DNA from: Callorhinchus milii
Lineage: Eukaryota
Assembly: GCF_018977255.1 (NCBI RefSeq)
Contig: NW_024704742.1
Span: forward strand, 32,180,001 to 32,244,000
Reading direction: 5' to 3'
Length of the DNA: 64,000 nucleotides
The first letter of the stretch is position 1, and each line of letters starts with the position of its first letter. The position numbers and the translations under genes were made by a program. Shown piece after piece: positions 12,966-62,900 of the stretch. The notes under the pieces were generated by a model. That model worked only from the letters and a program-made list of their open reading frames with translations, ran no database searches and was not told where the DNA came from.

Positions 12966-15900
12966 CAACAACATTACATTTGTATAACGCTTTTCACGCA
13001 GGGAGGACGTTCCAAGGCACTGACTGGACAGTATGCAGCATTTCAGACAACCGGGATAGTGGGAAGAAGAGATTCAATTGAGGAATTTAAGATTATAATG
13101 GGTGGGGAAAATTTGGATTCAGATCAGATGAATCATCAGACCTCCTCAAAATAAAAGATACAAAAGTGAATAAGAAATGCAAAAGATTGTTTTCTATAAA
13201 GTAACAGGACACAAGATATGTGGAATAATGTACCAGTATAGGGGTAGCTGACTAAGGAACAACAAAGGGTTTAAAAAAGGAAGTAGACAGGTTCCTGAGA
13301 ACTGAAAGGTTTGAGGGATATTAGAATTAGGTATGTGAAACAAATTATCTCCACCAGGGCTGGAAAGAGTCTGAAAAAGGAACTAGACATGTTCCCGTCA
13401 TTGAGAAGGATACAGAGCTTTGAATTTAGAGATAAATACATCAAAGGGAATAACAAGCTGGGTGTATGGTTAGCTTCTACCTGAAACTGTTACTAAATGT
13501 AAATATGAAGAACCAACCTTCTAAGTGCACTGGGGATGTAAGCTTGTTGCTCCACTTCTGCCTGACATTGCATAATGAGACATCTTCCAATTTACTGCAA
13601 CTATTCACCCACAAAATATTTACTTCAATTTACTTTACAGTATATTCTGTGTTTTGAGAAGTGTCAATGACATAAAGTGCTCTATCAAATGCAAGGATTA
13701 TTATTATTCAGTTTGGTATGGACATGTTTTAGATTGGTGATGGGTCTCCATGGGCCAGACACCCAGCTGAATAAAAAAATCCACATATTGGTTAAACAAT
13801 AAGTCAATTACTTTGCAAGACTGGGATGAGAGCAGTATTAAAATGCTAACCAAGTCTCGCTTAGATGAAGAATATAAGTTCAAATAAATATTTAACATGT
13901 GCAAATGATTTGCAAACTTTGGATTCCATTTGGAAAAGCCATCAATCAACAGCAATTTAAAAATGCATATGACAGTTCATTTCTTTGAGCTCTTAAGTAC
14001 ATCAATAGTCAATGGCATAGAAATGTAACTTTGCATTTCACTGGAACATTAGTTAATTAACAACTGTCCCCGAAGGATTGGGTAATTTTGAAATCCTGAA
14101 TGTGTAATAACTAAAGCAAGTTCAATAAATGGCAATTTAGTGTAGTTATACAAACTTACTTCCTCCCCTCCCCCACATGTGTATTTTTATCCTGTTTGCT
14201 TCTTTTCTATCTCTGTCTCTCTCCCTAAGTTGGTGTCTCAGGAGATTTTACTCACAGAGCTCTAACTTGGGTCACAGAAAATGCAGTCTTGCAATACATT
14301 ACTATGCATATCTGTCTGTGTGTGTATGCGTTGCTCCATCCTCACAAAGAAACACTGGCACCATCAACAGAACCTGAAACTGTGTGCTTTCTGATGAGGC
14401 TTCTTAGTGAGTGTCCCAGCTTACAGTATAATGTACAACATCAATGAGGCGTCAATCCATGACTGTTTATGGGGCGCTGCTGTGCGCAATGGTCTGCTGC
14501 GTTTCATCCACAAATTAGTCAATTCATTTTACAGTATATTCTGTGAAACACTTTGAGACGGCTCAATGAAGTGATAATGCACGGATTATTATTATTACTA
14601 TTAAGGCAGGTTTTGAAGGCATGGAGGGAGGGGTGAAGATGGGAACCTACAAGACAGAAGTTATAATAAAAAAATTAAAATCCTTGCATTTGGTATAGCG
14701 GCATCAGGATGCCCCAAAGCACTTCTTGGGATATACTGTAAAGTACAACAACTTGTGGGTGAATATAGGAAGTGAAATTTTTAGCAGCCTTAAAATGCAT
14801 CAAACTTCCACTTTCAGGTGGGAAAACAGAACGCTATGGGTTCTTGGAGACTGCATGCTTTTAATCAGTCTCTTCACGTATTTCGTAGTTAAGAAACAGG
14901 AATTAGAATATTTACACACTAACTCGAATGATGTGCTGAGACCTTCTTCCAGATATTTGCTATTTGAGCTCAGAGTTTTGCAGCAAATCCAGTATGTACA
15001 AAACAACAACTTTATATATGCATTTACACGGCAGCCTTCAAGTATATATTCTTGCAGTGCGTTACAATGACAGGGTTGGACGGTGAGCGAGGGAAGGGGA
15101 AAGGGAGAGGTGACCACAAGCACGGTCGAGGAAACATATTTTACAGTGGAACTTTAAGAGAGATAAAGACGGAGGACATGAGGCAGGGGAGAGGGGTATA
15201 TCTAGCAAGGGAGTCCTGGAGGTTAGGGGGCATAGAATCTAAAACCATGGCCATTCAGCAAGTCTGAGGTAGCCTAACGGAGGGGGAGGGTAGTGGAGTG
15301 GGGAATGAGGAGATCAGAGAAACAGGGAAATAAAACTTTAGACAGCATTTCCTAGTAATCAATAAACCAACTGAGCTCTCATAACTACTGAAAGTTATCA
15401 CAATCAGTTCCAGGCAGTTCCAGGCACTGGCAAGCTACGACTGGCACGAACACGGAAGGAACCGTAGCATGAAAACTGCTGTACAACTATAGATGTTACA
15501 TTTCGGCAACAGGACACTTGTCTGGTTGAAAGAACTGGAGTGTCCCCGTCGCCTACTATGGCAAAAGGTAACTGAGACAGCAGGTTCCAGGCACAGTTTC
15601 TACTTTGCTTGTGGTTCAGGGTTGACCTTGGAACCAACTCTATTTCTGCTGGACCACGGCTCCGTGGAGTTATGTGTCCTCACAACAATGACAACCATCA
15701 CGTCGTCACCAAACCCAGCTGCCAACCTGGAGGTCCTGCACATTGGTTAGTCCTCTCCCCAAAACCACTGGCGAAGCTCAAAAAACAACTGGAGAGGTCC
15801 CGGGCAATCAGGAAATCTCACGTGTCTTAAGATAAACTTAGGGAGAAGGAAGAAAGGCCCACCACATTCTACACGTTACAACCTTCCCAACCCTTCCTAG

Positions 15901-26048: not shown

Positions 26049-26707
26049 ATTGAAGAGATTTGCGATGTCCTCCTGTTGTGAAAGGTGCTATACCTAAGCA
26101 AATCAAATTCCAAGGTTGCATCTTGAGAGCATTTGCCTGCAGGTTTAATAGAGAGAGAGGAATAATTCACATAGGACCTAAACTGGCTAAATAGGGCCCC
26201 CTTCACAGGTAACAACAGGGGCCCCTTCCAGGAATAACTAGCTAGTCAGATAGCTGATGAGGATGGATTTCTATATGTGTTAGACACCCAACTGAGCAAA
26301 ACCAAGGAAAACTGCAAGAGTAAAGGTGGGGGAACTTCAAGAGTTTCAGGGATGCAGTCATCAGCCGACGCAGATTGTTTTTTACTCTCTCCCTTTCAAT
26401 CGCTATTTATTTTGTGACTTCTGTACTTTTTAAGGGTTTGAAGATAGTTATGGGAACTATCCACTAGAACTCAAGGCTGGATGGGTTAGACCCACACCCA
26501 CTAGATCCTTGTCATTCCTGGACTAGCTGTATCCCTTTTACCCCATTCTTCACATAACTATGCCTGTGGCTGTCTGTTTGTAATTTCATGGCAGGTGTTG
26601 ATTTGCTTTGCAGATTATGGTTTACAAAAATTGTAAACATTGGATTGTTACTGTTTTTAATTAAAAATCAGCACAACGCAATCCGTAATCTTTTTTTCCA
26701 GCTTAGT

Positions 26708-27449
26708 CCAGCCGACTATGGGAACTCTCTCCTCGCCGGCCTTCCCGGCACCTCCCTCCACAAGCTGCAGGTCATTCAGAACTCTGCAGCTCGTGTACTG
26801 TCCCGCACCAGGCTTCGCGACCACATCACTCCCACCCTCGCTCGCCTCCACTGGCTCCCCATCCCCCAGAGGATTGAATTCAAGATCCTCATCCTCACCT
26901 ACAAGGCCATTCACGGCCTTGCTCCCTCCTACCTCTCCAACCTACTATCCCCCTACCTACCTGCCCGTACCCTCCGTTCCTCTGGCTCCGGTCTGCTCCA
27001 CGTCCCCCGCCCCAACCGCCCTACTATCGGTGGCCGGGCCTTCAGCCTCTCAGCCCCCAGGCTCTGGAACTCTATCCCCCAGTGCCTTCGCCGCTTCCTC
27101 CCTTTCCTCCTTCAAGGCCGGTCTCAAAACCTTTCTCTTTGACCGAGCCTTCAGCTCCCCTCTCGACTCTCTTCCTCCTCCCTCCCTCCCTTCCCTCCCC
27201 TCACCCTGACCATTTCCCCCCTCCTCTCTCCCTCCCTTCCCTCCCCTCACCCTGACCATTTCCCCCCTCCTCTCTCCCTCCCTTCCCTCCCCTCACCCTG
27301 ACCATTTCCCCCTCCTCGCTCCCTCCCTTCCCTCCCCTCACCCTGACCATTTCCCCCCTGCTCGGGTCATGACCCAACTGTGCAGCGCCTTGGGACGTCC
27401 TCCTGACGTGAAAGGCGCTCTATAAATGGAATCTTGTTGTTGTTGTTGT
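26708..27449 (+). mobile_element. 5'-truncated L2-clade LINE: ORF2 C-terminus, 3' UTR and (TTG)n tail
   Basis: DYGNSLLAGLP..LQVIQNSAARVL..HITPTLARLHWLPIPQRIEFKIL..YKAIHGLAPSYL is typical of L2 ORF2. Stem-loop tail at 27384-27419. Confidence 0.93.
27175..27358 (+). repeat. Pyrimidine-rich tandem repeat (about 44 bp, about 4 copies) inside an L2 3' UTR
   Basis: CTCCCTCCCTTCCCTCCCCTCACCCTGACCATTTCCCCC is repeated here; the related L2 at about 47930-47970 has a single copy. Confidence 0.9.
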
Positions 27450-27803
27450 AGTCTTACTGTAACTAAAATATTGCTTAAAAGTTAAGAGAAAACTATCTTC
27501 CAAAGTTCAACAAAAACAATTACATTGATATGACACCTTTCACGTCAGGAGGTTGAATCGAAGCATTTCAGAGCTGACTGGGAGACTGAGCTGGGGACGG
27601 AGGAGGGGGAAAAGAAAGATGATCAAAAACATTGTTGAAAAGCAATCATTTTAACTTTCAAACTGATTGCTTGATGCAACAGACAAGAAGAATTTCTGAC
27701 TGTATGTGTGCCCTCTGTACTAGTGCAGCAGAGCGACAAAGCTGCTAATGTAATTTCTTTCTGCTAAATTTCAATCAGCAGCTACCCTTTCCTGTAAAAC
27801 TGA

Positions 27804-35371: not shown

Positions 35372-37379
35372 CTATATATGTTGTTCAACAGATAGTACGC
35401 AGATAGTACACCAGTCAGAGTGTACCCTCACCAATGTTTCACATGGCTGATACTAAGACACCGAGGCCATCCCAGGTGAGATAGAAACAAACCAGTGGAT
35501 TGGATCTGTGCGACTCAGTTTCAAGCCAGGTTAAACCTTCACCATTTTGGGTGTGTGGTGGGGGGGGGGGGGGCAGATACTACAAGCTGTGAACCTGGAG
35601 CTGTAAATGATACCCTTGTATACGTAACCTATTAGCATTCACTCCAAAATTTCCGTCATAAATTTTTTTCCAATGAAAATAAAATTTCCCTCCCCATTCT
35701 CTCTCCTCACCCCCGCCCATCCACCCACTACATCGTCCATGTATATTTTACACAAATGCTGAACCTATGTGTACACATTAGGCGACAAAAAGCAAGTATT
35801 CTCAATCGATAAAATATTCATTTCTCTGTGGCTCCCATCGTGAATCCTGAAGGCCACTATGTTGCTCTTGCATCTCGTAATAATAACAATAACAAATAAC
35901 AAAATAACAAATAATAATAACAAATAATCCTTGAATATAGCGTTTTTCAACAACAAGAGCCAACAAGTTGCATTTATGGATCGACTCTCACGTCGGGAGG
36001 ACATCGCAAGGGGCAGGACAGTGAAGGGATTGCACACGAGCTGGGGATTGGAATCAAGACGGGTGAAGGGCAAGGGGAGTTGGGGTGGGAGGATGCCACG
36101 GTCAAAGCGGAAGGTTTTGAAACGACGAGAGGACATTAAAGCACTTCACAGAATTCACTGTAAAGTGTAGTGAGTGTACTTTGAGGTCAACACAGCAGCC
36201 AGTTATGCACACAGCAATGTCATGGCTGTCATCCTAACTGCTTCTCAGACAATATTCAAAACCAAATCAAGTGGTACATTAATTGGACAAGAGTTAACTA
36301 TCACGGTTCCAAACTCTTGTCTACGTATTAGTTCTTCAGGGGAACTGTGCCATGTTTTCACAGCTCCGATTGTTTCCGGTTTTCTCGTACAAGGGCTGAC
36401 TGGGCTCACACGGCATCCTTTGAGCTGAAAGCACAAACTGTGCAAACTCTGCACTTGCTGCAGCAAAGAACGTGCACTACACGGAGAGAGGTATCCAGAC
36501 TACAGAAGGCAACACGGCACAGTACTGCAGATGAGAACCGCAAGGGAAAGCGTATGTCAGGGCTTTCTTTGCTGCTCCTTTACTGAACAAGATCCCTGTG
36601 TATAGATGTCTAAGGTGAGGTTGTGCAAAAGGGGATCAATGAACAGGGTTCTTAATTATGAAAGTCCACGCAATTCAAACCAACACAAAGCACTTGCGTC
36701 TTGACCACTAAACTACCAATACTCTTATACTGTACTGAGAACATTCTCCTCCCTCGGCCACACAGTTTTATCTTTTACATTTTTAAATCTGGAAATGATT
36801 ACGTCAGGAAAATGAGATAGTGGCAGCAGAGTCTACGCAGCACCTTGTAAAGCTTCAATTACAAGACTGAAACCAGGAACCAAAGTGACGTCCAGAGTGT
36901 GTGGTTGGGGGGGGTGGGGGGGGGTGGGATGGATGACATTAAACAGCCGTTCCCACAAAATGTCACAGCATTCGGTCAAGAGTAAAAACATTAAAAATGC
37001 TGAATTAACCTTTCTCCTAGAACTTAGGGCATGTCATTTGGCAGAGAGACACACACACAGCGGAGGACTTTACAGAGGAGTTGTTTGTTTTGCAAAAATG
37101 CCTTTCTTAAATTAAACCTCGACACCGAAAACTGCGGACGGCGATCCTTGTGCGCTTCGGAATGTTTTAAGCTATAATTAATCAGGGATCCCATTCAATT
37201 AAGTAAATGGGTGGTGTGTGTGTGTGTGTGTGGGGGGGAGAGGAGGGATTACATCTGTTTCTGAGAGAAGTTTACAGCTTGTTTGAGCATTTGCTTATAA
37301 AGCAAAGACAGGGGACCTGAACCCTGACAACGTTTCACACACATCAATTTCAGTTGGTGTAACTAGTGATACACCAGAG

Positions 37380-38170
37380 AGACACAGCCACACCGACACA
37401 CACACACACAGACACATAGCCACACACACACACACACAGACACACAGCCACACACAGCCACAGACACACACACAGCCACAGACACACACACAGCCACACA
37501 CACACACACACAGCCACACACACACACACAGCCACACACACACACACACAGAGCCACACACACACACAGAGCCACACACACACACAGATACAGAGCCACA
37601 CACACACACAGATACAGAGCCACACACACACACAGATACAGAGCCACACACACACACAGATACAGAGCCACACACACACACAGACACAGAGCCACACACA
37701 CACACAGATACAGAGCCACACACACAGATACAGAGCCACACACACAGATACAGAGCCACACACACAGATACAGAGCCACACACACAGATACAGAGCCACA
37801 CACACAGATACAGAGCCACACACACAGATACAGAGCCACACACACAGATACAGAGCCACACACACAGATACAGAGCCACACACACAGATACAGAGCCACA
37901 CACACAGATACAGAGCCACACACACAGACACAGAGCCACACACACACACACAGACAGAGCCACACACACACACAGATACAGAGCCACACACACACACAGA
38001 TACAGAGCCACACACACACACAGATACAGAGCCACACACACACACAGATACAGAGCCACACACACACAGATACAGAGCCACACACACACACAGATACAGA
38101 GCCACACATACAGATACAGAGCCACACACACAGATACAGAGCCACACACACACACACACACACACACACA
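37380..38170. repeat. CA-based minisatellite, unit about CAGAGC(CA)nGATA, with an exact 20-bp period at about 37711-37920
   Basis: Directly visible tandem array. It produces the spurious Cys/Val ORFs in the track. Confidence 0.97.
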
Positions 38171-38300
38171 GGGGCTGTGGAGAAAATAAGTGCATTGACC
38201 GACAGTTCCCGGCAGAGCGCCAGTGGACAGTGAACCGCACACACATGACCTGTCAGCCATCGGACACGGCTTCTCCGTCTGTGACACCGTGAGAAGGAAT

Positions 38301-38870
38301 TGGGGAGTGGGTGAGGGGAGTGGGTGAGGGGGAGTGAGTGGGGGGGAGTGGAGGAGGGGAGGAGTGGGTGAGGGGAGAGTGAGGAGGGAGGGGGAGGAGT
38401 GGGGGGAGTGAGTGAGTGGGGGGAGTGAGTAAGTGGGGGGGAGTGAGTGGGGGTGAATGAGTGGGGGGAGTGAGTGGGGGTGAGTGAGTGGGGGTGAGTG
38501 AGTGAGTGGGGAGTGAGTGAGTGGGTGAGGGGGGAGTGGGTGATGGGGAGTGGGTGAGGGGGGAGTGGGTGGGTGAGGGGGGGGAGTGAGTGAGGGGGGG
38601 AGTGGGTGAGGGGGGGGGAGTGAGTGAGTGGGGGGGTGGGAGTGGGTGAGGGGGAGTGAGTGAGAGGGGGGGGGGAGTGGGTGAGGGGGGGAGTGAGTGA
38701 GGGGGGAGTGAGTGGGGGGGGAGTGAGTGAGGGGGGGAGTGGGTGGGGGGGAGTGAGTGAGTGGGGGGAGTGAGTGGAGGAGGGGGGGAGTGGGTGAGGG
38801 GAGTGAATGGGTGAGTGGGTGAGTGGGGGAGTGGGTGAGTGGGGAGTGGTGGTGGTGGGGAGTGGAGGGG
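38301..38870. repeat. G-rich low-complexity array built from G-run and GAGT units
   Basis: About 570 bp of almost only G, A and T on the + strand, with many runs of 3 or more G. Confidence 0.95.
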
Positions 38871-38879
38871 AATCAGAGC

Positions 38880-40900
38880 CCCAGTGAACCCCGTGGCGGA
38901 GCCGTTTACCCGCTCTCCAGGAGGCTCATGCACACGACCTCTCGGACTCCGGGGTTGTTGGCCTTCTCGGCGGAGCAGCGCTGCAGGTTCCAGCTGCCGA
39001 GCCTCAGCACCCGCCCCCCGGCCCTCAGGCCGCCGAACGCCTCCACGCTGGGCCGCGCCGCCACGACCTGCGCGGGGCCGCCGGGGGGCAGATCCAGGTC
39101 CAGGTCCAGGTCCTCGCTGTGCAGACTGAGGGAGGTGGGGCTCGGGTGGGGCCCGGGCCCGGGCCCGGGGCTGAAGTGGAGGCCCCCGTTGGTGTGCGCG
39201 GCGGACGGGGGTCGGGACCGCTCGGCGGCGGAGGCGGAGGCGGCGGAGGCGGCGGAGGCCCCGAGCAGCTCGTCCGGGCTCCGGCCCGGGCCGCGCCGCT
39301 GGCGGGAGCCGACGACCACGACGACGGCGTCGGCCGCCGTCCGGCTCGGGCCCCGTCGGCCGTTTGCCGTCTCCGTGGCCGTGGCGACGTCGAGCGGGGC
39401 CGCCTCGGCGTGGTCGCCCCGCGGCGGAGAGCCGGGAGAGTGCTGGGCCGAGCCGCCGCCGCCCCCTCCGCCCCCTCCTCCTCCTCCTCCTCCGCCCCGA
39501 CCGCTGACGCAGATCTCCGGCTTGATGTGCTCCAGCCTGGCGGCCCCCACCCCGCTCACCAGCGCCAGGTCCTCCACCTTCTTGAAGCCGCCGATGCGCT
39601 GCCGGTAGTCCACGATGTTGCGGGACACGGCCCGGCCCACCCCGGGCAGGGTCATCAGCTCCTCCTCCGTGGCCGCGTTGATGTTCAGCCGCTCCGGGGG
39701 CGGACCGAGACGTTGCTGAAGTTACAGGCCGCGCTGAACTTGCGGCGCCGACCGCTCTCCAGGGGGTCCCGCGGGATGGAGCGGTGGCAGCCCAGGGTGC
39801 CCCCCATCGCCGGTCCCCCCTCTCTCCCGAGCCGCCGCCGAGCCGCCGCCGCCGGGGAGCTGCCAAGGGGTCATCCGCTCCCACTCCCCCCTCTCCACCT
39901 CCACCGACGCCGAGAGTCCGACTGACCGCTCAACCGCAACCGGTGCGCTCTCGGGTCTCAGGTCCCACCCGCGCGCGTGTGTGCGTATGTGTCCTCTCTC
40001 TCGCACACACTGCTCTGAACCCCCCGGGGGGGGGGGAGGACCGGATGGTTTAAACACACCAGAGAGGGGGGAGGGGGGGGGGGACGGGACTGGGTGTCCT
40101 GTAGTGACCCCCTCAACCGCTGTGGCGGTCACAAGCGTCAGTTAACCGCAGCCCCCGGGGTTTCCGCGGACAGACCCGACCCGACAGCTTCACTCTGGAT
40201 TTTACATCCCCTTTTTTTTTCCCCCCTCTCTCACTCTCTCTCTCTCTCTACGGCAAAGTGTTAGGTCTTTGCAACGAGAGCCCTTCTCTCTCTCTCTCTC
40301 TCTGTGTGGAGGGGGTGGAGGGGGGGGGGGTGAGGGGGTGGAGGGGGGGGAGGGGGGGGGGTCCTGGTCGGGCTCTGCTGCTGAATTCAAGAGCGGTAGA
40401 TGCAGACGCGGTGCCAAACTCGTTCAGTCAAAGCACTGGGAAGCGTTCAGCAGCCGAAACGCACCACTGCACTGGCACTTCATCTGCTGAGAGGGAGGGA
40501 GGGAGGGAGGGAGAGGGAGGGGGTGGGGGGAGTGCCACCAGGACCTCCAGCTGACTGACCACCAATAACTCAGGGGCAAGTCATGTGCTGCGATCTCTCA
40601 TGACAGACAGTGATGGAGGAGGGGGGGAGTGGTGGGGGGGGTGTGTAGTCTGCGGTGTAAAGGTACAGCTCTGCACAGGGTTGGGAATCCCTCGTTCCTT
40701 TGGATTCTTCAAGTCGTTGGAAGTGAAAAGCAGCGAAACATAATACGCGTCTCCGCCGCCTCCTCCTCCTCCTCCTCTCCACCCCCTCAGCTCCTTTCTT
40801 CAGGACCTAAGCTTGCCGTGTTTTGTTTGTGCGAGCAGGCGGCTGGCGTGCACTTGCCAGGAGTTTCGCTGCTTCCCTGTAAAAACAGTCATGAGTCGGT
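38880..40900. promoter_or_regulatory. CpG island over the EEPD1 first coding exon and probable 5' UTR/promoter
   Basis: Very high GC and CpG density at about 38880-40200 against AT-rich flanks. G-tracts and (CT)n at 40225-40360; CCAAT at 40562-40566. The TSS and any non-coding first exon cannot be placed. Confidence 0.7.
38910..39807 (-). CDS. EEPD1: EEPD1 first coding exon: N-terminal lipidation motif, HhH region and start of the EEP domain; apparent frameshift near 39691-39712
   Basis: ATG at 39807 gives MGGTLGCHRSIPRDPLESGRRRKFSAACNFSN, matching the recalled human start MGSTLGCHRSIPRDP..RKFSAACNFSN. A shifted frame continues ERLNINAATEEELMTLPGVGRAVSRNIVDYRQRIGGFKKVEDLALVSGVG...WNLQRCSAEKANNPGVREVVCMSLLES. 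Donor GG|GTAAAC at 38910/38909 (phase 2). Confidence 0.95.
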
Positions 40901-42157: not shown

Positions 42158-42915
42158 TTTTTTTTTGGTCAGCTGGGTGTCTGGCACGTGTGCTAACAAA
42201 TCACCGCGCTTAAGAGGATCCAAACCAAGCTGAGATTTCCAGGCATCCCACCTACACATGGAGATTCCAGAGAGAGATTGTTGGAATGGAATGCGCACTC
42301 TCTTCCTGGAGGGACGCATCCTGCTTACCTAATTTCGGAAAGTATTAGACGCAGGTTGGACCTCAGAGTGTGCGGTGGGGTAACTGCTGGAGTCCAACCA
42401 GCTAAAACCACATAGCTTGCCATTGATATTTCTATCTAGCAAACTTTCCCACTGCTTGTCCAGCTAAGAGTCCTGTAGCTCAGTGGTTAGAGCACTCGCT
42501 TTGCAAGTGAGAGACCTGAGTTCAATTCCAGGCAGAGGGCGAAACCTTGGGCAAGTTTCCTTACTCCACACAGAGCCTAATAATAATCCCTCCAAAACCA
42601 AAAACAATAATAAATTGGTCACTTTCAATCTACGACTGTTTGTGGGACATTGCTGTGCGCAATTGGCTGCCGCGTTCGCCCACAAATATACAGTCAATTC
42701 ACTTTACAGTGTGTTCTGTGAAGCGCTTTGGGACGTCCTCCCGACATGAAAAGCGCTATATAAAATGCAAGGATTATTATTATTAAGATCACCGTATCCG
42801 TTAGGTCTTTGGCTTGCAGGGTTAACAGGAGCTGAGTGGGATGACTCCCTGCCCTCAGTTACTTTTCATATCCTGCCGATGAGCTAGGCTGCCTGTGCGA
42901 TCATCGGCAGAGCTA
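42158..42915 (+). repeat. Unclassified repeat, copy C, split by a young SINE
   Basis: Reverse complement of copy A; homology resumes after the SINE at 42786. Confidence 0.85.
42468..42785 (+). mobile_element. Full-length tRNA-derived SINE, short (young) subfamily
   Basis: A box TAGCTCAGTGG, B box GAGTTCAATTCC, anticodon arm with TGC, CORE-like CCTTGGGCAAGT, Deu-like segment, L2-type tail and (TTA)n. Near-identical to the copies at 53259, 54530 and 55378. Confidence 0.92.
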
Positions 42916-45900
42916 GTCGATTGGCGAATCGATTTTCTGGGGATAATAATCCATTCAAAATAAATAAAGGATCATTATTATTATGTTACCTTGGAGCCAG
43001 TTCAGCTCTAACAAGGGCCCTCCCCACCAAGAAGGATAGTCACGTTTTAATTATTAAAACAAAACTATAGAACTATGACATATCATTGACGCTCAATTTC
43101 ATAATGAAAGTAGAAGGAGAAAAAACACGTGAACCGTGGATATTGTATGTCAATTTCTCAGAACAATTAGGAAATCCTGGCACACGTGACTGACAATGCT
43201 AGAAATTAGGGCCAAATCTAACTTGTAAAAACACACAAAAACAGATAGCATTCCCCAGCGTGATGTCCTAGATTTTACAGAACTCACATAGTTTATTGTA
43301 CAACAGCATCGTTTCTTTAAGAATAATAAACTGGGAGTGGGCAGGCACTAAATATCTCCCTGCACAGTTATATAGTGCGCCTCACTATTCCATGGGTTTT
43401 ATACGTAACGTGGTTGTAGAGTGAGGTTCAATGATGTCAACTTTGGGAGTGACTGTGAGAGGACTATAACGGGCATATTTATAATTGCATGATCTCACTT
43501 TAAGGATGCCCCCCCCCCCCCCCACTGCCGTCCCAACAAGACTGTTCTAATAAGGCCGGGCTGAACTGGTGGTGACGCTTTACTGTTTAGAATGACACTT
43601 TTGGGTTACTCAGCATCAACCTCGCAGCCGTGGTTGGATGGACTGAACCGCAACAATCCAGGGTTAACGAAAAGCAGCAGCAGTCATCGGAGGAGTGACC
43701 AGTGCTGTACGGGGTGGGGGGGGGGGGGGGGAGAATTGTTAGATCTGCACCCGTCTTGTGGTGGCTGCTCAGTCATCTTGCTCAACATTTCTGCTCCAGG
43801 ATCACGATTACTCTTTGGTAATTCCATAATTGTAAGTCTGCTGAAGACACGCATTCCCCTAAAATCTCCAGTTCTCATCCGTAAACCTTAGCTCATCACT
43901 AACCAGCTCTGTCCAACATCACTCCACAAGATTCATTGTCAAGTAATGTTTCAGTGATCGCAAGGATACACATTGTTTCCTACATGATATACTTTCAGAC
44001 AGTTGGAATGTGTAGTTATCACAATTTGGCTCTTTTGCAACATCTGTTTCCATTGGGTTTTTACACAGAGATACAAGTGAACTTTTGTAACTTTTCTGAC
44101 AGTACTGCTTCTTCCTTTTCAAGACCACAGGACACCTCAGTAAGCATTCAGTCTCATTATTTGATCCCTGGTAGGACAACAGTACAACGTAAGAGCAGCC
44201 TTCATCCCAAATACAGAAGTTAATTTCGTGTTTAACGGCACCCTAACCGACATGACGCTGAAGTTTCACAACCCACACACTTCATCCTAAAGCCCTTCAT
44301 CCTCCATATAAATTTGTTTTATATCTTTGAATATGTTTTGTAGGGACTTTACGTCAGACAACATCTTGGTATAACAGTAATAAGGGGTTTCATAATCAGG
44401 AATTCAGAATCCAGTGGAGCCTTCTTGTAATATAGTTGTTGGGATAACAATAATAATAATAATATAATAATAATCCTTGCCTTTGATATAGCCTTATCAT
44501 AAAATCCGAGCACAGTGGTGGGTTAGACGCAAGCAGGAAAACGATTCAGACAGCAATCAATCTGATGACCTGGAAAGCTGTCTCCCTCCCCACCCTCCCG
44601 CATAGCTTTCCATTTGGTCCACAATTCAACATTTCTGGATAGCTTAGTCCCAGATTTGGTCTCCTTGACCCTTACACACGTTTTCCACCAGAATGCAAAG
44701 CTACCTTCAAAAAGATCCCATCAAAAATGCTAAGATGACAGTGGAATTTGTGAACCACAGAATGTGCAGGAATGAATGGTCAGGCCGTGCTGTATACTGA
44801 ACAGACAAAACTGGCTCAGTCACTTGCACTCCCACCTCTGGGTCAGGTCGTGAGTTCAATCCCCACTTGGGAACTTTTAGCCGACCGTGGCGGATGAACT
44901 TCAGGGCAGTGCACGGGAATCGGGGCAGGTGGGGGGGAGGGAGTGGGGAAGAAACTGGGGGGGAAACTGATTCATTGTCAGGGGCGTTGTACTTTAGATC
45001 AAACATTACTAATACCAAAGTCCCATTTGCTTGTTCATATGGATGTTAGAGTTCAGACTATCTGTAAAGAGAAGGGAGTTTCTTGCAATGTCAGAGTGGC
45101 AGTGCTTACCCTGATATTGCTCTACTATGACAAACAGAAAGTAATAAAGTTTACAATGTTAGTCAACGTCATAATACAGAACAATGGCCAGGCCAATCTT
45201 TTATTTCAGCAGTTGACAAACATTGCAAATATTCTTTTTCTCACCTTGATTCAATCCACTGGTGTTCACTGCATTGCCAAGAGTGCAAAGGAATTTCTTT
45301 TCTTTTTAAAAATGTTTCCCACATTCCATAGCCTTCGCTAGCAGGAAACCCTGGTCCCAGGGCTGCCAATGATGCTCTTGAATGATTCACAATTAGGAAG
45401 AAGTTATCATGCAGAGAAACACCAGGCATCTCACCAGTCCACAAACTGCACTAAAAAGCTCTCTTGATTCTACTCTGTAAATTGGGGGAAGGGGAGAGGA
45501 ATACCCTAGGAAACCTTAAACACAAGCATTCATTTAAGAACTGGTGTGGCCTTAAAAAATTACAATATTTTATCTAAACCTCAACACATCGTGATACAGT
45601 TAAAAGAACATTTTTTTCACCTATTGTGATAAACAGAGGGGCAATGAGTGCTTAAAAAAATGTGGTCACTCAATCCATGATTGTTTGTGGAACACTGCTG
45701 TGAACAATTGGCTGCTGCATTACGCCCACAAAATACACAGTCTCCAACTTACAATATATTCTGTGAAGCTCTTTGAGACGTCTCAACAACGTGATAAAGC
45801 GCTATATCCAATGCAACGATTATTATTGCAGAGAAATCTGTGGATTTCTTCCTGGATCAGTCTTTCTTGTTTCAATTTGTAAAACTCTCCTATCTTATAT

Positions 45901-47579: not shown

Positions 47580-48610
47580 GACCAACTGGTGACTATCCTC
47601 CAGCTTGAGTCAAATCAGGGACTTCTTGGAGTTGAACTGCCTCCAAGGTAACACGTTTGGCAACAGAATATCGGAATCGAGCCAGCCCTTTATGGCGGTC
47701 TCGGTAGCCTGGTTCCTGAGCCAGGTGGTTCCGCAGTATTCGAGGGCACTGCTGATGACAGCACAACCAGCCTGGCTCATCGGCATGATTTAGAAGGGCA
47801 GGAACTTCTCCCGCTCAGATCCTGTTAACAACAAGATACAACAACAACAACAACAAGATTCCATTTATTGAGCGCCTTTCACGTCAGGAGGACGTCCCAA
47901 GGCGCTGTACAGTTGGGTCAGGACCCGAGCAGGGGGGAAATGGTCAGGGTGAGGGGAGGGAAGGGAGGGAGCGAGGAGGGGGTAGAGAGTCGAGAGGGGA
48001 GCTGAAGGCTCGGTCAAAGAGAAAGGTCTTGAGACCGGCCTTGAAGGAGGAAAGGGAGGAGGCAGCGAAGGCACTGGGGGATCGAGTTCCAGAGCCTAGG
48101 GTCTGAGAGGCTGAAGGCCCGGCCACCGATGGTAGGGCGGTTGGGGCGGGGGATGTGGAGCCAGAGGAACGGAGGGTACGGGCGGGTAGGTAGGGGGATA
48201 GTAGGTCGGAGAGGTAGGAGGGAGCAAGGTCGTGAATGCCCTTGTAGGTGAGGGTGAGGATCTTGAATTAACCCTGCAAGCCAAAGCCCAAATGGGTAGG
48301 GTGGTAGCTGGACAAGCAGTGAGAACGCTTGCCATCAATGGTAAGCTATGCAGTTTTAGCTTGTTAGCCTCCAGCAATATCCCAACACACACTCTGGGCT
48401 CCCCAAGCCTTGGCTCTCGCCAACCAGTGACGAATACTTTCTAGAATTAGATAAGCAAACTGCATCCCTCCAGGGAGAGATTGTGCACTCCATTCCAGTA
48501 AATATCTCTGGAATTTCCGTGTGTGGGTAGGACGCATGGAACTCTGTTTGGTTTGGATACTTTTAAGCACGGTGAATGGTTTCTGCATGTGTCAGACACC
48601 TGGCTTTTTA
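47580..48610 (-). repeat. Unclassified repeat, copy B, split by an L2 insertion
   Basis: Homology to copy A on both sides of the L2. Confidence 0.85.
47830..48269 (-). mobile_element. L2 3' end inserted into the unclassified repeat, with TTAAC duplicated at 47825-47829 and 48268-48272
   Basis: Close reverse-complement match to 26875-27449. Confidence 0.9.
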
Positions 48611-53258: not shown

Positions 53259-53584
53259 AGTCCTGTAGCTCAGTGGTTAGAGCACTCGCTTTGCAAGCGA
53301 GAGACCCGAGTTCAATTCCAGGCAGAGGGCGAAACCTTGGGCAAGTTTCCTTACTCCACACAGAGCCTAATAATAATCCCTCCAAAAAACTAAAAAACAA
53401 TAATAAATTGGTCATTTTCAATCTACGACTGTTTGTGGGACATTGCTGTGCGCAATTGGCTGCCGCGTTCGCCCACAAATATACAGTCAATTCACTTTAC
53501 AGTGTGTTCTGTGAAGCGTTTGGGACGTCCTCCCGACGTGAAAAGCGCTATATCAAATGCAAGGATTATTATTATTATTATTAT
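53259..53584 (+). mobile_element. Full-length tRNA-derived SINE, short subfamily
   Basis: Same structure as 42468-42785, with an intact anticodon stem CTCGC-TTTGCAA-GCGAG. Confidence 0.92.
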
Positions 53585-54529
53585 AGTTGACAGCACCTTA
53601 ACAATATCATCAGTGTGCTCAAAACACCTCGCAAAAAGAGAGGCTTCAAAATCCACAGGTTTATATACACAGCTCATTAATCCCACAGATCAGAACTTGA
53701 AGGATGGGACAATGCCATACACCAGAAGTCTGCAAACAGTGAGTGAGTGAGAGTGAGTAAGAAGGCAAGTGAGTCTCGACACAGGATTGGGAAAAACAGC
53801 AAGGTTGATTTCAATACCGAACCCATGCCATAAATTACAGCAGATCAAGCCCTAAACCCAGATTTTTAATGTGTACAGGAGAAAAGTATCCCCCTCCCAA
53901 ATCCCACAATAAAATTTACTATTAAAACTTAACAAATTTTGGAAAATACATTCAGCATAAAACAGCATTACAGTTTTGACCAGTCAGGTGATTCACTAGT
54001 GATCGTGTGTTGTGATAACCCGTTTCCTCATAATGCAGTCATGTGCTGTTAGTCATCCTGCAAATATCTTATGTTCTATATGTTGTTAAACGGTTGCTGG
54101 AGATACTGAGGAAGTGGATACTGTATTCTTAACAGATGCAATTTTGCAACGAACTTCCGATTTACCACTAGACAAATGAATTCAGGGCAGACTAGAAAAA
54201 CATAACTAATACTGATAGCACTCAAAACAATTTATGGTGCAGTATACCTCAACAACTGTAGTCTTGAGAGATGCTGTGTAATTGAATCCCTACACTGAAC
54301 ATATACATCCTTATACCGCACAACACAATAAACTAATTAATTGGAGATAAAGATCAAGGACCTTGATAATTTAGTAAGATGTCTGATGTTGTTAAACCCA
54401 TGTTGATAATGTGGAGCTGTACAGTCCCATTGATTTATAATGCTAGTGATCCTTGCACTCATCGCATCTTTGAAACATCTCAAAGAGAATTTACTTTCAA
54501 ATCCAGTGACTCTATTTGTAGGCAAAATA

Positions 54530-54847
54530 GAGTCCTGTAGCTCAGTGGTTAGAGCACTCGCTTTGCAAGCGAGAGACCTGAGTTCAATTCCAGGCAGGGC
54601 GAAACATTGGGCAAGTTTCCTTACTCCACACGCCTAATAATAATCCCTCCAAAACCAAAAACAATAATAAATTGGTCATTTTCAATCTACGACTGTTTGT
54701 GGGACATTGCTGTGCGCAATTGGCTGCCGCGTTCGCCCACAAATATACAGTCAATTCACTTTACAGTGTGTTCTGTGAAGCGCTTTGGACGTCCTCCCGA
54801 CGTGAAAAGCGCTATATCAAATGCAAGGATTATTATTATTATTATTA
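54530..54847 (+). mobile_element. Full-length tRNA-derived SINE, short subfamily
   Basis: Same head, body and (TTA)n tail as the other short-subfamily copies. Confidence 0.92.
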
Positions 54848-55377: not shown

Positions 55378-55711
55378 ATAATAATAATAATAACAATAAT
55401 AATAATAATCCTTGCATTTGATATAGCGCTTTTCACGTCGGGAGGACATCCCAAAGCGCTTCACAGAATATACTGTAAAGTGAGTTGACTGTATATTTGT
55501 GGGCGAACGCGGCAGCCAATTGCGCACAGCAATGTCCCACAAACAGTCATAGATTGAAAATGACCAATTTAATTATTGTTTTTGTTTTTTGGAGGGATTA
55601 TTATTAGGCGTGTGAGTAAGGAAACTTGCGCAAGGTTTCGCCCTGCCTGGAATTGAACTCAGGTCTCTCACTTGCAAAGCGAGTGCTCTAACCACTGAGC
55701 TACAGGACTCC
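55378..55711 (-). mobile_element. Full-length tRNA-derived SINE, short subfamily, inverted relative to 54530-54847
   Basis: Reverse complement of the same consensus. Confidence 0.92.
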
Positions 55712-57987: not shown

Positions 57988-59306
57988 CTATTCTACTCTG
58001 AGGGGAACCCAGTAACTCGCCAGCAAAAAGTAATCAAGTTCCTCCTTATGTACAAAAAAGTGCCTTTCTATTGTATTTTGAGCTTGTGGAAGAGAATTCC
58101 ATAATATCAGTTTAATGTAGGTGGTTGAGGGAAATGGTATTTCAGTTTCTGAAAGCTCTGGAGACCATGGAACAATAAAACTGGTCATTCACTTCATGAC
58201 CGTTTGAGAGATATCGCTGTGTGCAAATTGGCTGCCATATTTGCAGTCACACCACTTTACAGTATGTGCTGTGAAGTATTTGGGGATGTGTTGACATGAA
58301 AGGCACTGTAGCAAATGGAAAAGTTATTATTATTAATTATTATTACTGCAGATTGGCCCTGCCATAGCAACAATTCCCCATCAAACAACCAATATGGGAA
58401 GACAATGTTTAACTGAATGATTGGGCAAAACAAAACTGTTAGTTACCATGGCATCAGCACCAATATATTGCTAAACTGCCGGTTCACCCAACCACAAACC
58501 ACTTCCAGGGCTCTCTGGCTTGATGTGCAGGATTTTACAATAAGATAATTTTAAGAAGATGGTGAATGCTAACAGGAAGGGGAAAGTCTGTTCTCTTTTA
58601 CTAGATAAACTGACTCAGCTAGACCATATTCATCATGGGAGAAGGGGAAAAAAAATCAGATTAATTACAGGACATCCATAACATTTATAGGAATGCAAAC
58701 CAGCTCAGTGATGCAATGGATGGATTCTGCTTATAAAGTTTTCTGCCCGATTTAGTACTGAAAGTTTCCTTTGTTAAAAAAGCTACCATGAAGAGTGCGC
58801 AGAATCTATCTCAGCTAAGCCTGTGTCAACTTTTTGATGCAAACAGATATTAAAGGCCCCTGTTTCAAAAGAGTTTTTCCATAGTGTCCTGGCTGATTGT
58901 CCTTCAGATGAACCTATCTTTCATGTCATAGCTTGTTGAGTTTCTTCTTTAAGCCTGATGGCCAGTTTGTAAATGATTTGAGGTAACTATGAAAGGGCAG
59001 GTCCACAGATACATGCTTCCGAAACAATGAATTCAACAACTCAGAGTCAAGTTTAGGCAATGTAAAGGTTTGATCAAAACCTGAAGTTACTCAACATCTG
59101 ACTCCAAGTTAGAAATAAAAATATGTTCTCATATCTCAAGTAATCCCTCTGAAAACACATTCCATAATCAGAACTGTCGAGGACTTTGGGACATCTTCCT
59201 GATGCGAGAAGTGCTATGTAAGTGTAAATTGTGTTATATTTAAAAATGTTTAAGCTCAGTGCAAACTAAACAAATATTTTTTAGCATAATTTACATCATG
59301 TCGAAT

Positions 59307-59923
59307 GACCAGCTAGTAACTATCCTCCTTGGGGGTCGGGATGGTAAGCGGGGTCTCCTTGGAGCTGAAATGGCTCCAAGGTGACGTGAATGACAACAGA
59401 ATATGGGAATCAAGGCAACCCTCTGTGGCGGTTTCTGTCATCCGGTTGCTGAGCCAGTCGGGATCGCTGTACTCTAAAGCACTGGAAATGACAGTGCATC
59501 ATCAAGACTTGGAAGGACAGAGCAGTCACTGGGGCAGGGAATCATCCCATTCAGCTCTTGTAACCCTGCAAACCAAAGCCCTTCAGGGTAGAGTTGTCCT
59601 AACTGGACAAGCAGCAGGAAAGCATGCCAGACACCTATATCAATGGTAAGATCTGCAGGTTTTGATGGTTTAACTCCCAGCAGTACCCAATGCACACTCT
59701 GGAATCCCCAAGCCTTGGCTCTTGCCAACCTGCACCTAATACTTTCCAGAATTAGGTAAGCAGGATGTGACCTCCAGGAAGAGAGTTCGCATTCGATTCC
59801 AACAATCTCTCTCTGGGATTTCCATGTGTAGGTGGGTTGAATGGAATTCTCAATCTAGTTTGGATCCTCTTGAGCATGGGATGAGTGTCAGACATGTGTC
59901 AGACACCCGGCTGACCGCCAAAA
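59307..59923 (-). repeat. Unclassified repeat with a decayed reading frame, copy A
   Basis: Aligns by eye with 47580-47829 plus 48268-48610, and with 42158-42468 plus 42786-42915. Confidence 0.85.
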
Positions 59924-62900
59924 CTCTCGATCATTTAACCTTGAATTTAACCCTTTTCATAGGAGACATTCCTGTGGTCCCATAGACACAGAGATTATGG
60001 ATGAAAACCATTAAAAATGCTTTTTATCCACAAAACCATATATTCTTCTGTTAAAAAAAAGCACTAATTGTGGGAAAACATTTGACATATTTGGTGATAA
60101 AAAAATTTAAAATTTGGATTATTTTGGAAAGTCAAACAAAAAACAAACAAAAAAAAGCAAATGTTGTGCTCACATTGTATGTCAGAGAAGAGTACAAAGT
60201 TTTTCACAAGACAATTCCAATTAGCTCCTTGCATCCTTTGAGCATAGGCAAAATTGGGAGCGATTCTGGCGCCAAGCAACTCCATGTTTGGCAAAAAACT
60301 TGTCCTGACGTGCACTGCATACAAACAGTGCCACACGCAGGGTATCTATGCGCTATCGTAGGATTCAGAGATCATCCATGACATGATCTATTTTCAGAGC
60401 CGAGTTCTTGCAAATCATAATCTATTTAAAGCAAGAAATCCCAGCTTGTTTCCTTAAGCCTCAAGGAATCCCATTAGATTCCACAACTTAAACCCCATCT
60501 GGACTCCGCTGGACCATTCTTGCAGCCCATTAGACAAGATGAAAGAACCAAGTGCTCTCTTTTTCACATTATAACAGGGTCGCCTGCACGGTTCAGTTCG
60601 TCAAATCATGAATTCATATGTTCTGTAAACCCTGCTGGAGAAACTACAAAATAGTGGTTTCCATAAATGGCACTTAGCTGCTCATCCATAATAAAATGTA
60701 CTTGTTACCAGAAGAGCAACCATTTAATTCTCCTGATTGCTTCCCATACCCATAATGTAACAAAAGTGTTTTAGAACATAACAAAATGCAAAGAAAATGA
60801 AACAATTTCTTGAAACAAAAAAAAATCTGTTTTAATTGTTCTTTTCAGTTTCCAATCTCAACTTTATTCCCAAGTTTTAAAGCTTATTTATCTCCCATTG
60901 GAATTGTGCCCTGTGAGAACTCATTTCAGCTAGACATGATTAACAAATCTAGCCTGCAGTCAACCCAGGATTCAGGAGCTCAAGAGAAGTATTGAATCCA
61001 AGTGTTTTCCATCCTCCTGAAACTGTTTCACATGTACGGAGTTTACTACTAGTTTTCATTCAAGATTCATATTTTCAAATTGCTCTCAAATTCCTAATTG
61101 GTACATTCAGGACTCAAAACATCTTTATTAATTATGCCAAGTCACTGTGTAAATAAAGAATGCTTTCAATTTGGATTGATCAACAGCTCTGCAAACAGAA
61201 CGTTGAAAATGCCACTTCATAAGCAATCTTCCCCAAGTAGTTAATAACAGAAATAAATAACCACTATTCTGGGTGAACAGTTAATCCTTTGTAAAGTTTC
61301 ATATGAATCAGCTGACATTTGCAGGCAAAGTACTTACTTATAAATCTTGATCAATAGTTTACAAAACTAAACTTGTATAGCGACTTTCACATAAGAAGGA
61401 CGTCCCAAGACGCTGGATGTAGTGATTATAAGATGGTGGGATCTAGTTAACTGGCAAATCACATTTTCTAGGACACCAGCATGATTTGCCTTTAATCCTT
61501 TAGTGCTTACCTAATCAGTACAGAGTTTAAAGAACTGCCTTGATTGCAGAAATGTAATAAAAACACAAAATAACTCCTTTAGAAACTAGTGACAACGTGG
61601 GCAATTGAGAAGGACAGAACACACCACAGAAACCTATGGAAATACATGGGTAAATTTCCAAAGCACACTGCAAAACGTCAGATGCTTAGAGACCACACTG
61701 CTGTGTTAATAACAATAATCTTTGCACTTGATATAGCTCCTTTCATGTCAGGAGAATGTCTCAAAGTGTTTTGCAGGATTTACTGTCAAGTGTAAGACTT
61801 TGTATTTTGTACTTGAAAAAAAACTTTTTGTTAATATTTGTTAATATCTGTATTCCTCTTACCTTAGACCTGCATTGCCAAACACAAATGTATTGGCAGG
61901 ATCATCCCTCAATACTATAATTACACTTCAACGGATAGTTTTCTAAACAGGATTTGAAGGCAAAGCAGGAGCAGTTTTTATGTTTAATTGAATGCTTTAT
62001 CTGGATTTTACTGATCTCTAATGTTTGTATTTTGCCATGTAAATTCATTCAAACTGGAGCCAACTTTTCAAATCCAGCTTAACGGGATTCAGTAATTTTT
62101 GTTGTCAATTTAATCACAGAATATATAATCATTTCTAAGCAGTGACAGTATTAAAAATCCTTGCATTTAATATTGAACCTTATCACATTGAAATGGCTCA
62201 AAGTGAGAAGCACAGACTAAGGTTTCTGTAAATTTCTGCGACTATTTGTAGACAAATGTGTCAGCCAATTTGCACACAGCAAAATACCCCCAATCTGCCA
62301 CAAAGTCAATCTGGAGGATAAGATTGATAAAACACCAGGAGAAACTACTTTCTGTTTCGAATAGTGTCATGCAATTATCAACATCCACCTGAACAGGCAA
62401 GCAGGGCCTCTGTTTAATGTCTCACCCAAAAGATGACACTGGTTGTCAGGAATCGATCGCTCTGTCAAAGTGCACCAAGACCTCGAAACAGAGGTGTAGC
62501 TGTCAATTATATGACGCAGCCTGGACTTTGTCATTCCATATCTATTTCGAGGTGTGCTTGGAAGAATATTAATTTGATAAACCTGAACAATTGAAGATTT
62601 TTTTTCCCACTATATATCAGCAGTGGATCTATGACCTTTAGTCAATATCCTGACAATGCAGCCTGCATTGCCCTTGACATGAGGCCAGGGCTGAAACAGC
62701 TGATTGTCCTGTGCTAATTCCTTGCAGAATGTCAATACTGTATTTACTGTAGTTATTTTGAAGCATAAAATCATCATCAGGTCACAAGCACGCTGCTGTT
62801 AATAAGACAAATGGACAATGTGGCTCGATATATAATTACATTTCCATGTATTACTCTGAGCTGGTTTTGTAATACGCAAACCACTGTTAATGAGGTAGGG

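Follow-up and report, generated by a model that had tools for sequence, protein, structure and literature searches.

The window, i.e., the whole stretch of 64,000 nucleotides of Callorhinchus milii DNA analyzed here, contains three long copies (A, B and C) and two short end pieces of a dispersed repeat, which a sequence-only reading had described as an unclassified family carrying a fossil open reading frame (ORF) of about 200 codons. The long copies are real repeats, with a mutual identity of 72-75% in blastn comparisons against the window and 81-85% identity to a 28-copy majority sequence of the roughly 620-bp repeat unit. Using blastn, copy A extends over 59308-59913, copy B over 47581-47801 and 48268-48605, and copy C over 42170-42469, 42784-42913 and 42983-43043, the latter two copies being split by nested repeats that are younger than their hosts. 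The short piece near 13.7 kb also holds up, as 13708-13769 matches the shared terminus of the majority sequence (blastn E-value 4e-7), whereas the one near 26.2 kb can be recognized by eye but has no blastn match at an E-value of 0.05. The features are listed below, with names that follow the interpretation of the repeat as the 3' end of a long interspersed element (LINE).

59298..59588, plus strand: copy A, LINE-sense 5' part (blastn against the unit; upstream start at the ORF2 frame)
59589..59913, plus strand: copy A, 3'UTR part up to the shared terminus (copy alignment, blastn)
59914..59930, plus strand: copy A, remnant of a decayed poly(A) tail, the T-run of the minus strand in the sequence-only reading (sequence, copy alignment)
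47581..47801, plus strand: copy B, LINE-sense 5' part on the ORF2-tail side (unit positions 397-619, 84%)
47830..48267, no strand assigned: younger repeats nested inside copy B (relatives at many other places in the window)
48268..48605, plus strand: copy B, 3'UTR part with the shared terminus, followed by an A-run on the plus strand (blastn)
42170..42469, minus strand: copy C, 3'UTR part with the shared terminus (blastn)
42470..42783, no strand assigned: SINE-like repeat nested inside copy C (94-97% against 53259-53577, 54529-54841 and 55397-55710)
42784..43043, minus strand: copy C, ORF2-tail side, in pieces 42784-42913 and 42983-43043 (blastn)
13708..13780, plus strand: strongly 5'-truncated copy, last ~64 nt of the element and an A-run (unit 1-64, 77%, E-value 4e-7)
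26262..26301, plus strand: very short 5'-truncated copy, last ~35 nt and a short A-run (weak, by eye only)

Copy A starts 19 nt upstream of TGACTATCC. Its 5' part opens with the final ~20 nt of the ORF2 frame, among them the TAG TGA at which the consensus stops. The 201-codon antisense frame, which corresponds to the ORF of the sequence-only reading, overlies the 3'UTR part of copy A with its first half and the 5' part with its second, the coordinate of the border between the two parts (59588/59589) being approximate. In copy C, a T-run precedes the repeat on the plus strand, which is poly(A) in the LINE sense. In copy A, ~10 nt of a terminal palindrome-like motif are tandemly duplicated at 59880-59913, just before the decayed poly(A); this duplication is absent from the other aligned copies and has so far been seen in copy A alone.

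Other repeats in the window are also worth recording. The SINE-like repeat of ~315 bp that interrupts copy C is present in four copies (42470-42783, 53259-53577, 54529-54841 and 55397-55710) with 94-97% identity, is far younger than the LINE tail, and has many more diverged copies across the window. The insertion in copy B contains a fragment of another LINE (47830-48267), and positions 432-863 of copy B match 26877-27452 at 92-97% as well as many other places in the window. A similar nested piece in one long genomic copy (L032:8300-8952) is open over 194 codons and includes a motif of the type ...HAFITSR.DY.NSLL....; this may resemble the C-terminal part of L2-type elements. Separately, a 4-kb block at 36001-40000 has a G+C content of 0.587 and an AT skew of 0.233, the G+C content of the rest of the window being 0.37-0.49.

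The repeat is very abundant. A search of the genome (991.5 Mb in 1762 contigs) gave 10016 first-look candidates with copy A as the DNA query and 36106 with the protein query. Among 40 scored matches to copy A, all show 75-80% identity except for a 99% twin on another contig, where copy A together with both of its flanks (59200-60050) recurs at 99% (L002; G000:C2:22006376-22010009). Further pairs of places gave identical results, viz., C1:32047984 and C2:22199721, C1:32430155 and C3:56757330 (L053 and L052), and C33:952159 and C3:38419482 (L060 and L061). These pairs around the window look like recent segmental duplications or redundant pieces of the assembly.

Alignment of 30 genomic copies with their flanks revealed that the unit starts straight after the T-run on the minus strand of copy A, in keeping with the earlier description of a shared terminus next to a T-run. 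Consequently, on the other strand the shared terminus is followed by poly(A). The end opposite to the poly(A) varies among copies, and 7 of 28 extend more than 100 nt further upstream. We examined the 30 copies for target duplications, for which 18 were anchorable; duplications of 9-11 bp abut both ends in three of them (L006, L007 and L025), a 6-bp duplication in L020 is doubtful, and the remaining anchored copies are ambiguous or extend upstream. First-look candidates also drop steeply from 3' to 5', from 10016 for the unit to 2370 for the part between the reverse transcriptase and the unit and to 147 further up. The copies would have been made by target-primed reverse transcription, a process that begins at the poly(A) and often halts early, leaving a common 3' terminus and differing other ends. 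No special 3' stem-loop is evident: when the last ~95 nt of four copies were folded as RNA, the z-scores lay between -1.2 and +0.7.

The sequence-only reading had raised two other origins, namely duplicated host pseudo-exons, in view of the acceptor-like T-run plus CAG, and a viral relic, with which an LTR element is considered here. Short C. milii gene models that include pieces of the repeat in the antisense frame might be cited for the former; however, these models are fragments of 43-76 amino acids or chimeras such as the database protein P0015, and the T-run with CAG is simply the complement of the element's end and its poly(A). Both origins are also at odds with the dispersal of thousands of 5'-truncated copies, bearing poly(A) and target duplications, over many contigs and with the continuity of the unit with a LINE ORF2. 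Likewise, the repeat has poly(A) on one side and a truncation on the other, and no Pol, integrase, Env or other Pfam match was found in pieces of both strands. We consider a pseudo-exon or viral or LTR-element ancestry highly improbable.

Longer copies, the search for which had been proposed earlier, do exist and continue upstream into a LINE ORF2 with a reverse transcriptase domain. A 22-copy majority sequence, built from two long copies and 30 loci retrieved with the upstream part, has one open frame in the sense direction, of 535 codons, which contains the reverse transcriptase domain followed by a C-x2-C...H-x4-C knuckle and ends with TAG TGA at the border of the ~620-bp unit. Natural pieces of one locus (L031) match the Pfam family RVT_1 with E-values of 4.1e-10 and 3.9e-9. 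All copies with the reverse transcriptase are decayed, their open frames being no longer than 250 amino acids. Upstream of this domain, an SDHWPV motif, which marks the end of an AP-type endonuclease, could be identified in two loci (L067:270-602 and L056:3693-4013), while the decayed pieces bearing the motif gave no Pfam match to an endonuclease domain. Walking toward the 5' end from a further locus (L075) did not find additional LINE sequence. The nearest database proteins (P0001-P0008) share 38-48% identity over the reverse transcriptase, and two full-length ones among them (P0002 and P0007) have the combination of Exo_endo_phos and RVT_1, P0002 with an additional weak match to zf-RVT. Against the PDB, the reverse transcriptase piece matches R2 proteins (E-value 9e-10) better than the human L1 ORF2p (E-value 1.5e-4).

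In their domain layout, the relatives with the L1/Tx1-like layout (P0002-P0008, auto-named 'LINE-1', 'Tx1' and 'jockey' ORF2) resemble the present element in having RVT_1, an SDHxPV motif and a knuckle near the end of ORF2; such LINEs also share with it the poly(A) tail, 5' truncation and target duplications. Unlike these relatives, the family described here is long dead, and its reverse transcriptase piece scores better against R2 proteins than against the human L1 ORF2p in the PDB. The poly(A), the variable 5' ends, the ORF2 with its reverse transcriptase, the target duplications and the general decay together are those of an old, dead, 5'-truncated LINE. We therefore propose, with a probability of about 0.85, that the repeat is the last ~620 bp of an old, inactive poly(A)-tailed LINE with a reverse transcriptase, a C-terminal knuckle and a putative AP-type endonuclease, and that the 201-codon frame lies antisense to this element and is not a gene. 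The sequence-only reading had itself remarked, in second place, that the other strand looks retroposon-like, with an A-run at the shared end and copies truncated to different extents, which would place the ORF antisense, and it is this remark that the copy alignment, the upstream ORF2 and the target duplications bear out.

The end of ORF2 may originally have been located further downstream than in the majority sequence. The database proteins P0006 and P0007 have a motif of the type [IL]LLGGE 32-35 residues past the knuckle, and P0002 has ILGGS there. In the present LINE, VTILLGGE is found at the same spacing from the knuckle, but in another sense frame and just past the consensus stop. A G-run located a few codons upstream of the motif varies in length among copies (7 copies vs 5-6 copies), and it depends on this variation whether ORF2 continues into the frame of the ILLGGE-type motif. 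Judging from these sequence features, ORF2 probably once reached ~100 codons into the unit, up to a TAG shared by 23 of 28 copies, leaving ~325 nt of 3'UTR; the unit would thus consist of the last ~100 codons of ORF2 and this 3'UTR. Correspondingly, the ~100-codon stretch of copy A past the consensus stop, within 59298..59588, is probably the former C-terminal tail of ORF2 in the sense frame with the ILLGGE-type motif.

The proposed homology of the sense tail to the C-termini of the relatives is drawn from the five-residue motif and its spacing. In phmmer comparisons with the C-termini of P0002, P0006 and P0007, neither the sense tail nor the antisense frame, which was used as a control, scored above 900 shuffled decoys. 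With the C-terminal 233 residues of P0002 as the query, a word-based search recovered no protein other than P0002. Among the loci examined, no natural copy is open from the knuckle through the ILLGGE-type motif, and the putative ORF2 tail has no codon-phase bias (15/16/15).

Some non-autonomous retroposons and SINEs share the 3' tail of a partner LINE, and the present unit could similarly exist also as a tail-only retroposon with its own 5' end, mobilized by the parent LINE. As in such elements, the unit is of high copy number, derives from the 3' end of a LINE and has 5' ends clustered near one point: 18 of the 28 copies L003-L030 start between -26 and +42 nt of TGACTATCC, the ORF2 stop, and three of these ends (L006, L007 and L025) are confirmed by adjacent target duplications. 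A 301-bp probe taken just downstream of the border also gave more first-look candidates than one just upstream (2221 vs 1338), though such counts are rough and probe-dependent. However, the 28 copies were picked as those most similar to copy A, whose own end lies at the border, so shorter copies were selected out and the clustering may be an artefact of this selection; the ends are, moreover, scattered over ~70 nt instead of falling on one base. Unlike SINEs that share a LINE tail, the unit is long (~620 bp) and has no Pol III-type head: Rfam finds no tRNA, 5S or 7SL-like head and no other match within the unit, either in copy A (E-value up to 1) or in 12 other copies (E-value up to 0.1). A tail-only derivative is therefore possible but on balance doubtful, and the clustering of 5' ends at the ORF2 stop could reflect either such a derivative or a preferred stop of reverse transcription. 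Just inside the border at TGACTATCC (near 59298-59320 of the window), we also note a G-run of variable length with a short inverted repeat.

We now turn to the antisense frame itself. A frame of 201 codons is indeed present in the 28-copy majority sequence, as the earlier claim of an ORF of about 200 codons would have it, but it is interrupted by two internal stops, a TAA and a TAG, each of which is found in 25 of 28 copies. The TAG that the sequence-only reading saw in both B and C is real, although it is merely the ancestral state of the family, being the TAG of those 25 copies. Of the best 150 matches in the genome to a natural 135-residue piece of the frame, 147 hold stops, mostly one TAG and at least one TAA; the piece is uninterrupted only at the locus of the query itself, in copy A and in one further copy. 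Since both stops are ancestral, the element behind nearly all copies did not have an intact antisense frame.

Nor is the openness of the frame exceptional. The six frames of the 630-nt unit have 3, 4, 5, 8, 9 and 14 stops; over the same stretch, the antisense frame, with two internal stops, has the fewest of all frames, the sense frame having three. Compared to dinucleotide shuffles, this scarcity is not significant, the probability of a minimum of three or fewer being 0.20 and that of a minimum of three or fewer with a second-lowest count of four or fewer being 0.057. An open stretch of at least 118 codons in any frame is likewise not significant (P = 0.22 in the shuffles).

The sequence-only reading had further proposed that differences between copies favor silent changes in the antisense frame. 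This synonymous-substitution signature is not confirmed on counting, as the codon positions are affected about equally and the pN/pS values fall within the range of those of other frames. Differences from the majority sequence at the three codon positions of the antisense frame are 24/24/33 in A, 31/20/30 in B (two parts summed) and 20/4/19 in C, and private differences of the 28 other copies from the majority sequence are distributed as 510/452/504. Non-CpG variants shared by at least three copies, a test that reflects change in the source elements, are distributed in the unit as 49/42/41 (p = 0.65), and there is no codon-phase signal in either the UTR part or the tail part when the unit is split into the two. 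The same count in ORF2, used as a positive control, is 63/35/66 (p = 0.005), so the method is able to see selection. Nei-Gojobori pN/pS, computed in all six frames as had been suggested, ranges from 0.55 to 0.75 in the antisense frame over six pairs, against 0.60-1.37 in the other five frames. The lowest value, 0.55, is that of copy A against the majority sequence, where the sense frame that shares the wobble positions is also low (0.62).

This last observation may have a simple source. The third codon positions of the sense frame with the ILLGGE-type motif and of the antisense frame lie at the same nucleotides, so wobble-biased change in one of them looks silent in the other. A 'shadow' of the former ORF2 tail could therefore explain part of the silent-looking changes and, in the second half of the antisense frame, its relative openness as well. 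The slight third-position excess of copy A comes from the tail part (14/12/22), the counts in the UTR part being 19/16/19. Two observations count against this explanation: the first 100 antisense codons lie in the assigned UTR, where no sense coding accounts for them, and the changes of Ser between TCC and AGC and of Arg among AGG, CGT and AGA are silent in the antisense frame alone.

Seven natural pieces from both strands match no Pfam family, with two hits (E-values 0.06 and 0.27) that are noise, and a word-based search with the 135-residue natural piece found no protein match. A profile made from 21 natural pieces of the N-terminal half of the antisense frame (set A2) was searched, over its first ~72 positions, against 1.84 billion representative proteins at an E-value of up to 0.001 and detected 11 proteins. 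Eight of these are UniRef entries of C. milii named 'Uncharacterized protein', of 43-172 amino acids, whose sequences look like translated copies of the repeat. The remaining hits, P0012, P0017 and P0018, are internally repetitive and are matched in 4-9 short stretches; outside these three, no taxon other than C. milii appeared. For the N-terminal half, the profile search yielded no homologue beyond the repeat's own copies. One of the C. milii entries, the 172-residue model P0015, has an unrelated N-terminus joined to a copy of the repeat in the antisense frame, and seven further models of 43-76 amino acids consist largely of the repeat; all eight are probably annotation artefacts or exonized pieces of the repeat.

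Could the frame nevertheless be the true fossil of an antisense gene once present in the LINE, or of a captured coding fragment, which received its two stops before the main burst of copies? It coincides closely with the extent of the unit, and its 201 codons in the majority sequence include no more than two internal stops. Copy A and its twin have neither of the two stops, the twin being open for 135 codons, and another copy, L006, has Gln codons at both stop positions, where the database protein P0010 also reads Gln at the matching places. The pN/pS of 0.55 for A against the majority sequence may be added to these, as may the long antisense ORFs recorded for some mammalian L1s (PMC5203782). 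However, the stops are ancestral to nearly all copies, the codon-phase bias is absent, the scarcity of stops is not significant, and neither a Pfam family nor a homologue beyond the repeat's own copies was found. Copy A is, furthermore, a single copy with a duplicated twin, so that most of its differences reflect decay of its own, in agreement with the even counts in its UTR part. A fossil of this kind is thus improbable, and slightly more so is its most explicit form, in which the LINE ancestor had a genuine antisense gene of ~200 codons over the ORF2 end and the 3'UTR that was lost by two stops just before the main expansion, with copy A descending from a stop-free lineage. The earlier suggestion that the source lineages diverged under protein-level selection is likewise not supported in view of the ancestral stops, the lack of codon-phase bias, the indistinct pN/pS and the lack of a homologue.

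Antisense ORFs of mammalian L1s offer a comparison for a dead antisense frame at the end of a LINE. These comprise ORF0 in the primate 5'UTR and ORFs of ~1 kb that overlap ORF1 in panda and eight other mammals, and the panda ORF is intact in 1157 of 1200 copies (PMC5203782). The present frame resembles them in being a long open frame with no recognized domain on the antisense strand of a LINE. Those ORFs overlap the 5'UTR or ORF1, and many active copies have them intact (PMC5203782), whereas the frame described here is located over the ORF2 end and the 3'UTR and was interrupted in the source element itself. If the improbable antisense gene were true, the antisense ORFs of some mammalian L1s would have a counterpart in a fish.

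Under the preferred reading of the repeat as the end of a LINE, the analysis removes a candidate 'unknown protein' and is in that respect an ordinary finding of little biological weight. It carries two cautions, viz., that an antisense frame can mimic a gene with silent substitutions if its wobble positions coincide with those of a frame that codes or once coded, and that pieces of this repeat already figure as protein in public gene models. For the genome of C. milii, the outcome is that one of its very abundant repeats can be assigned, at the probability given above, to the 3' end of a dead LINE.
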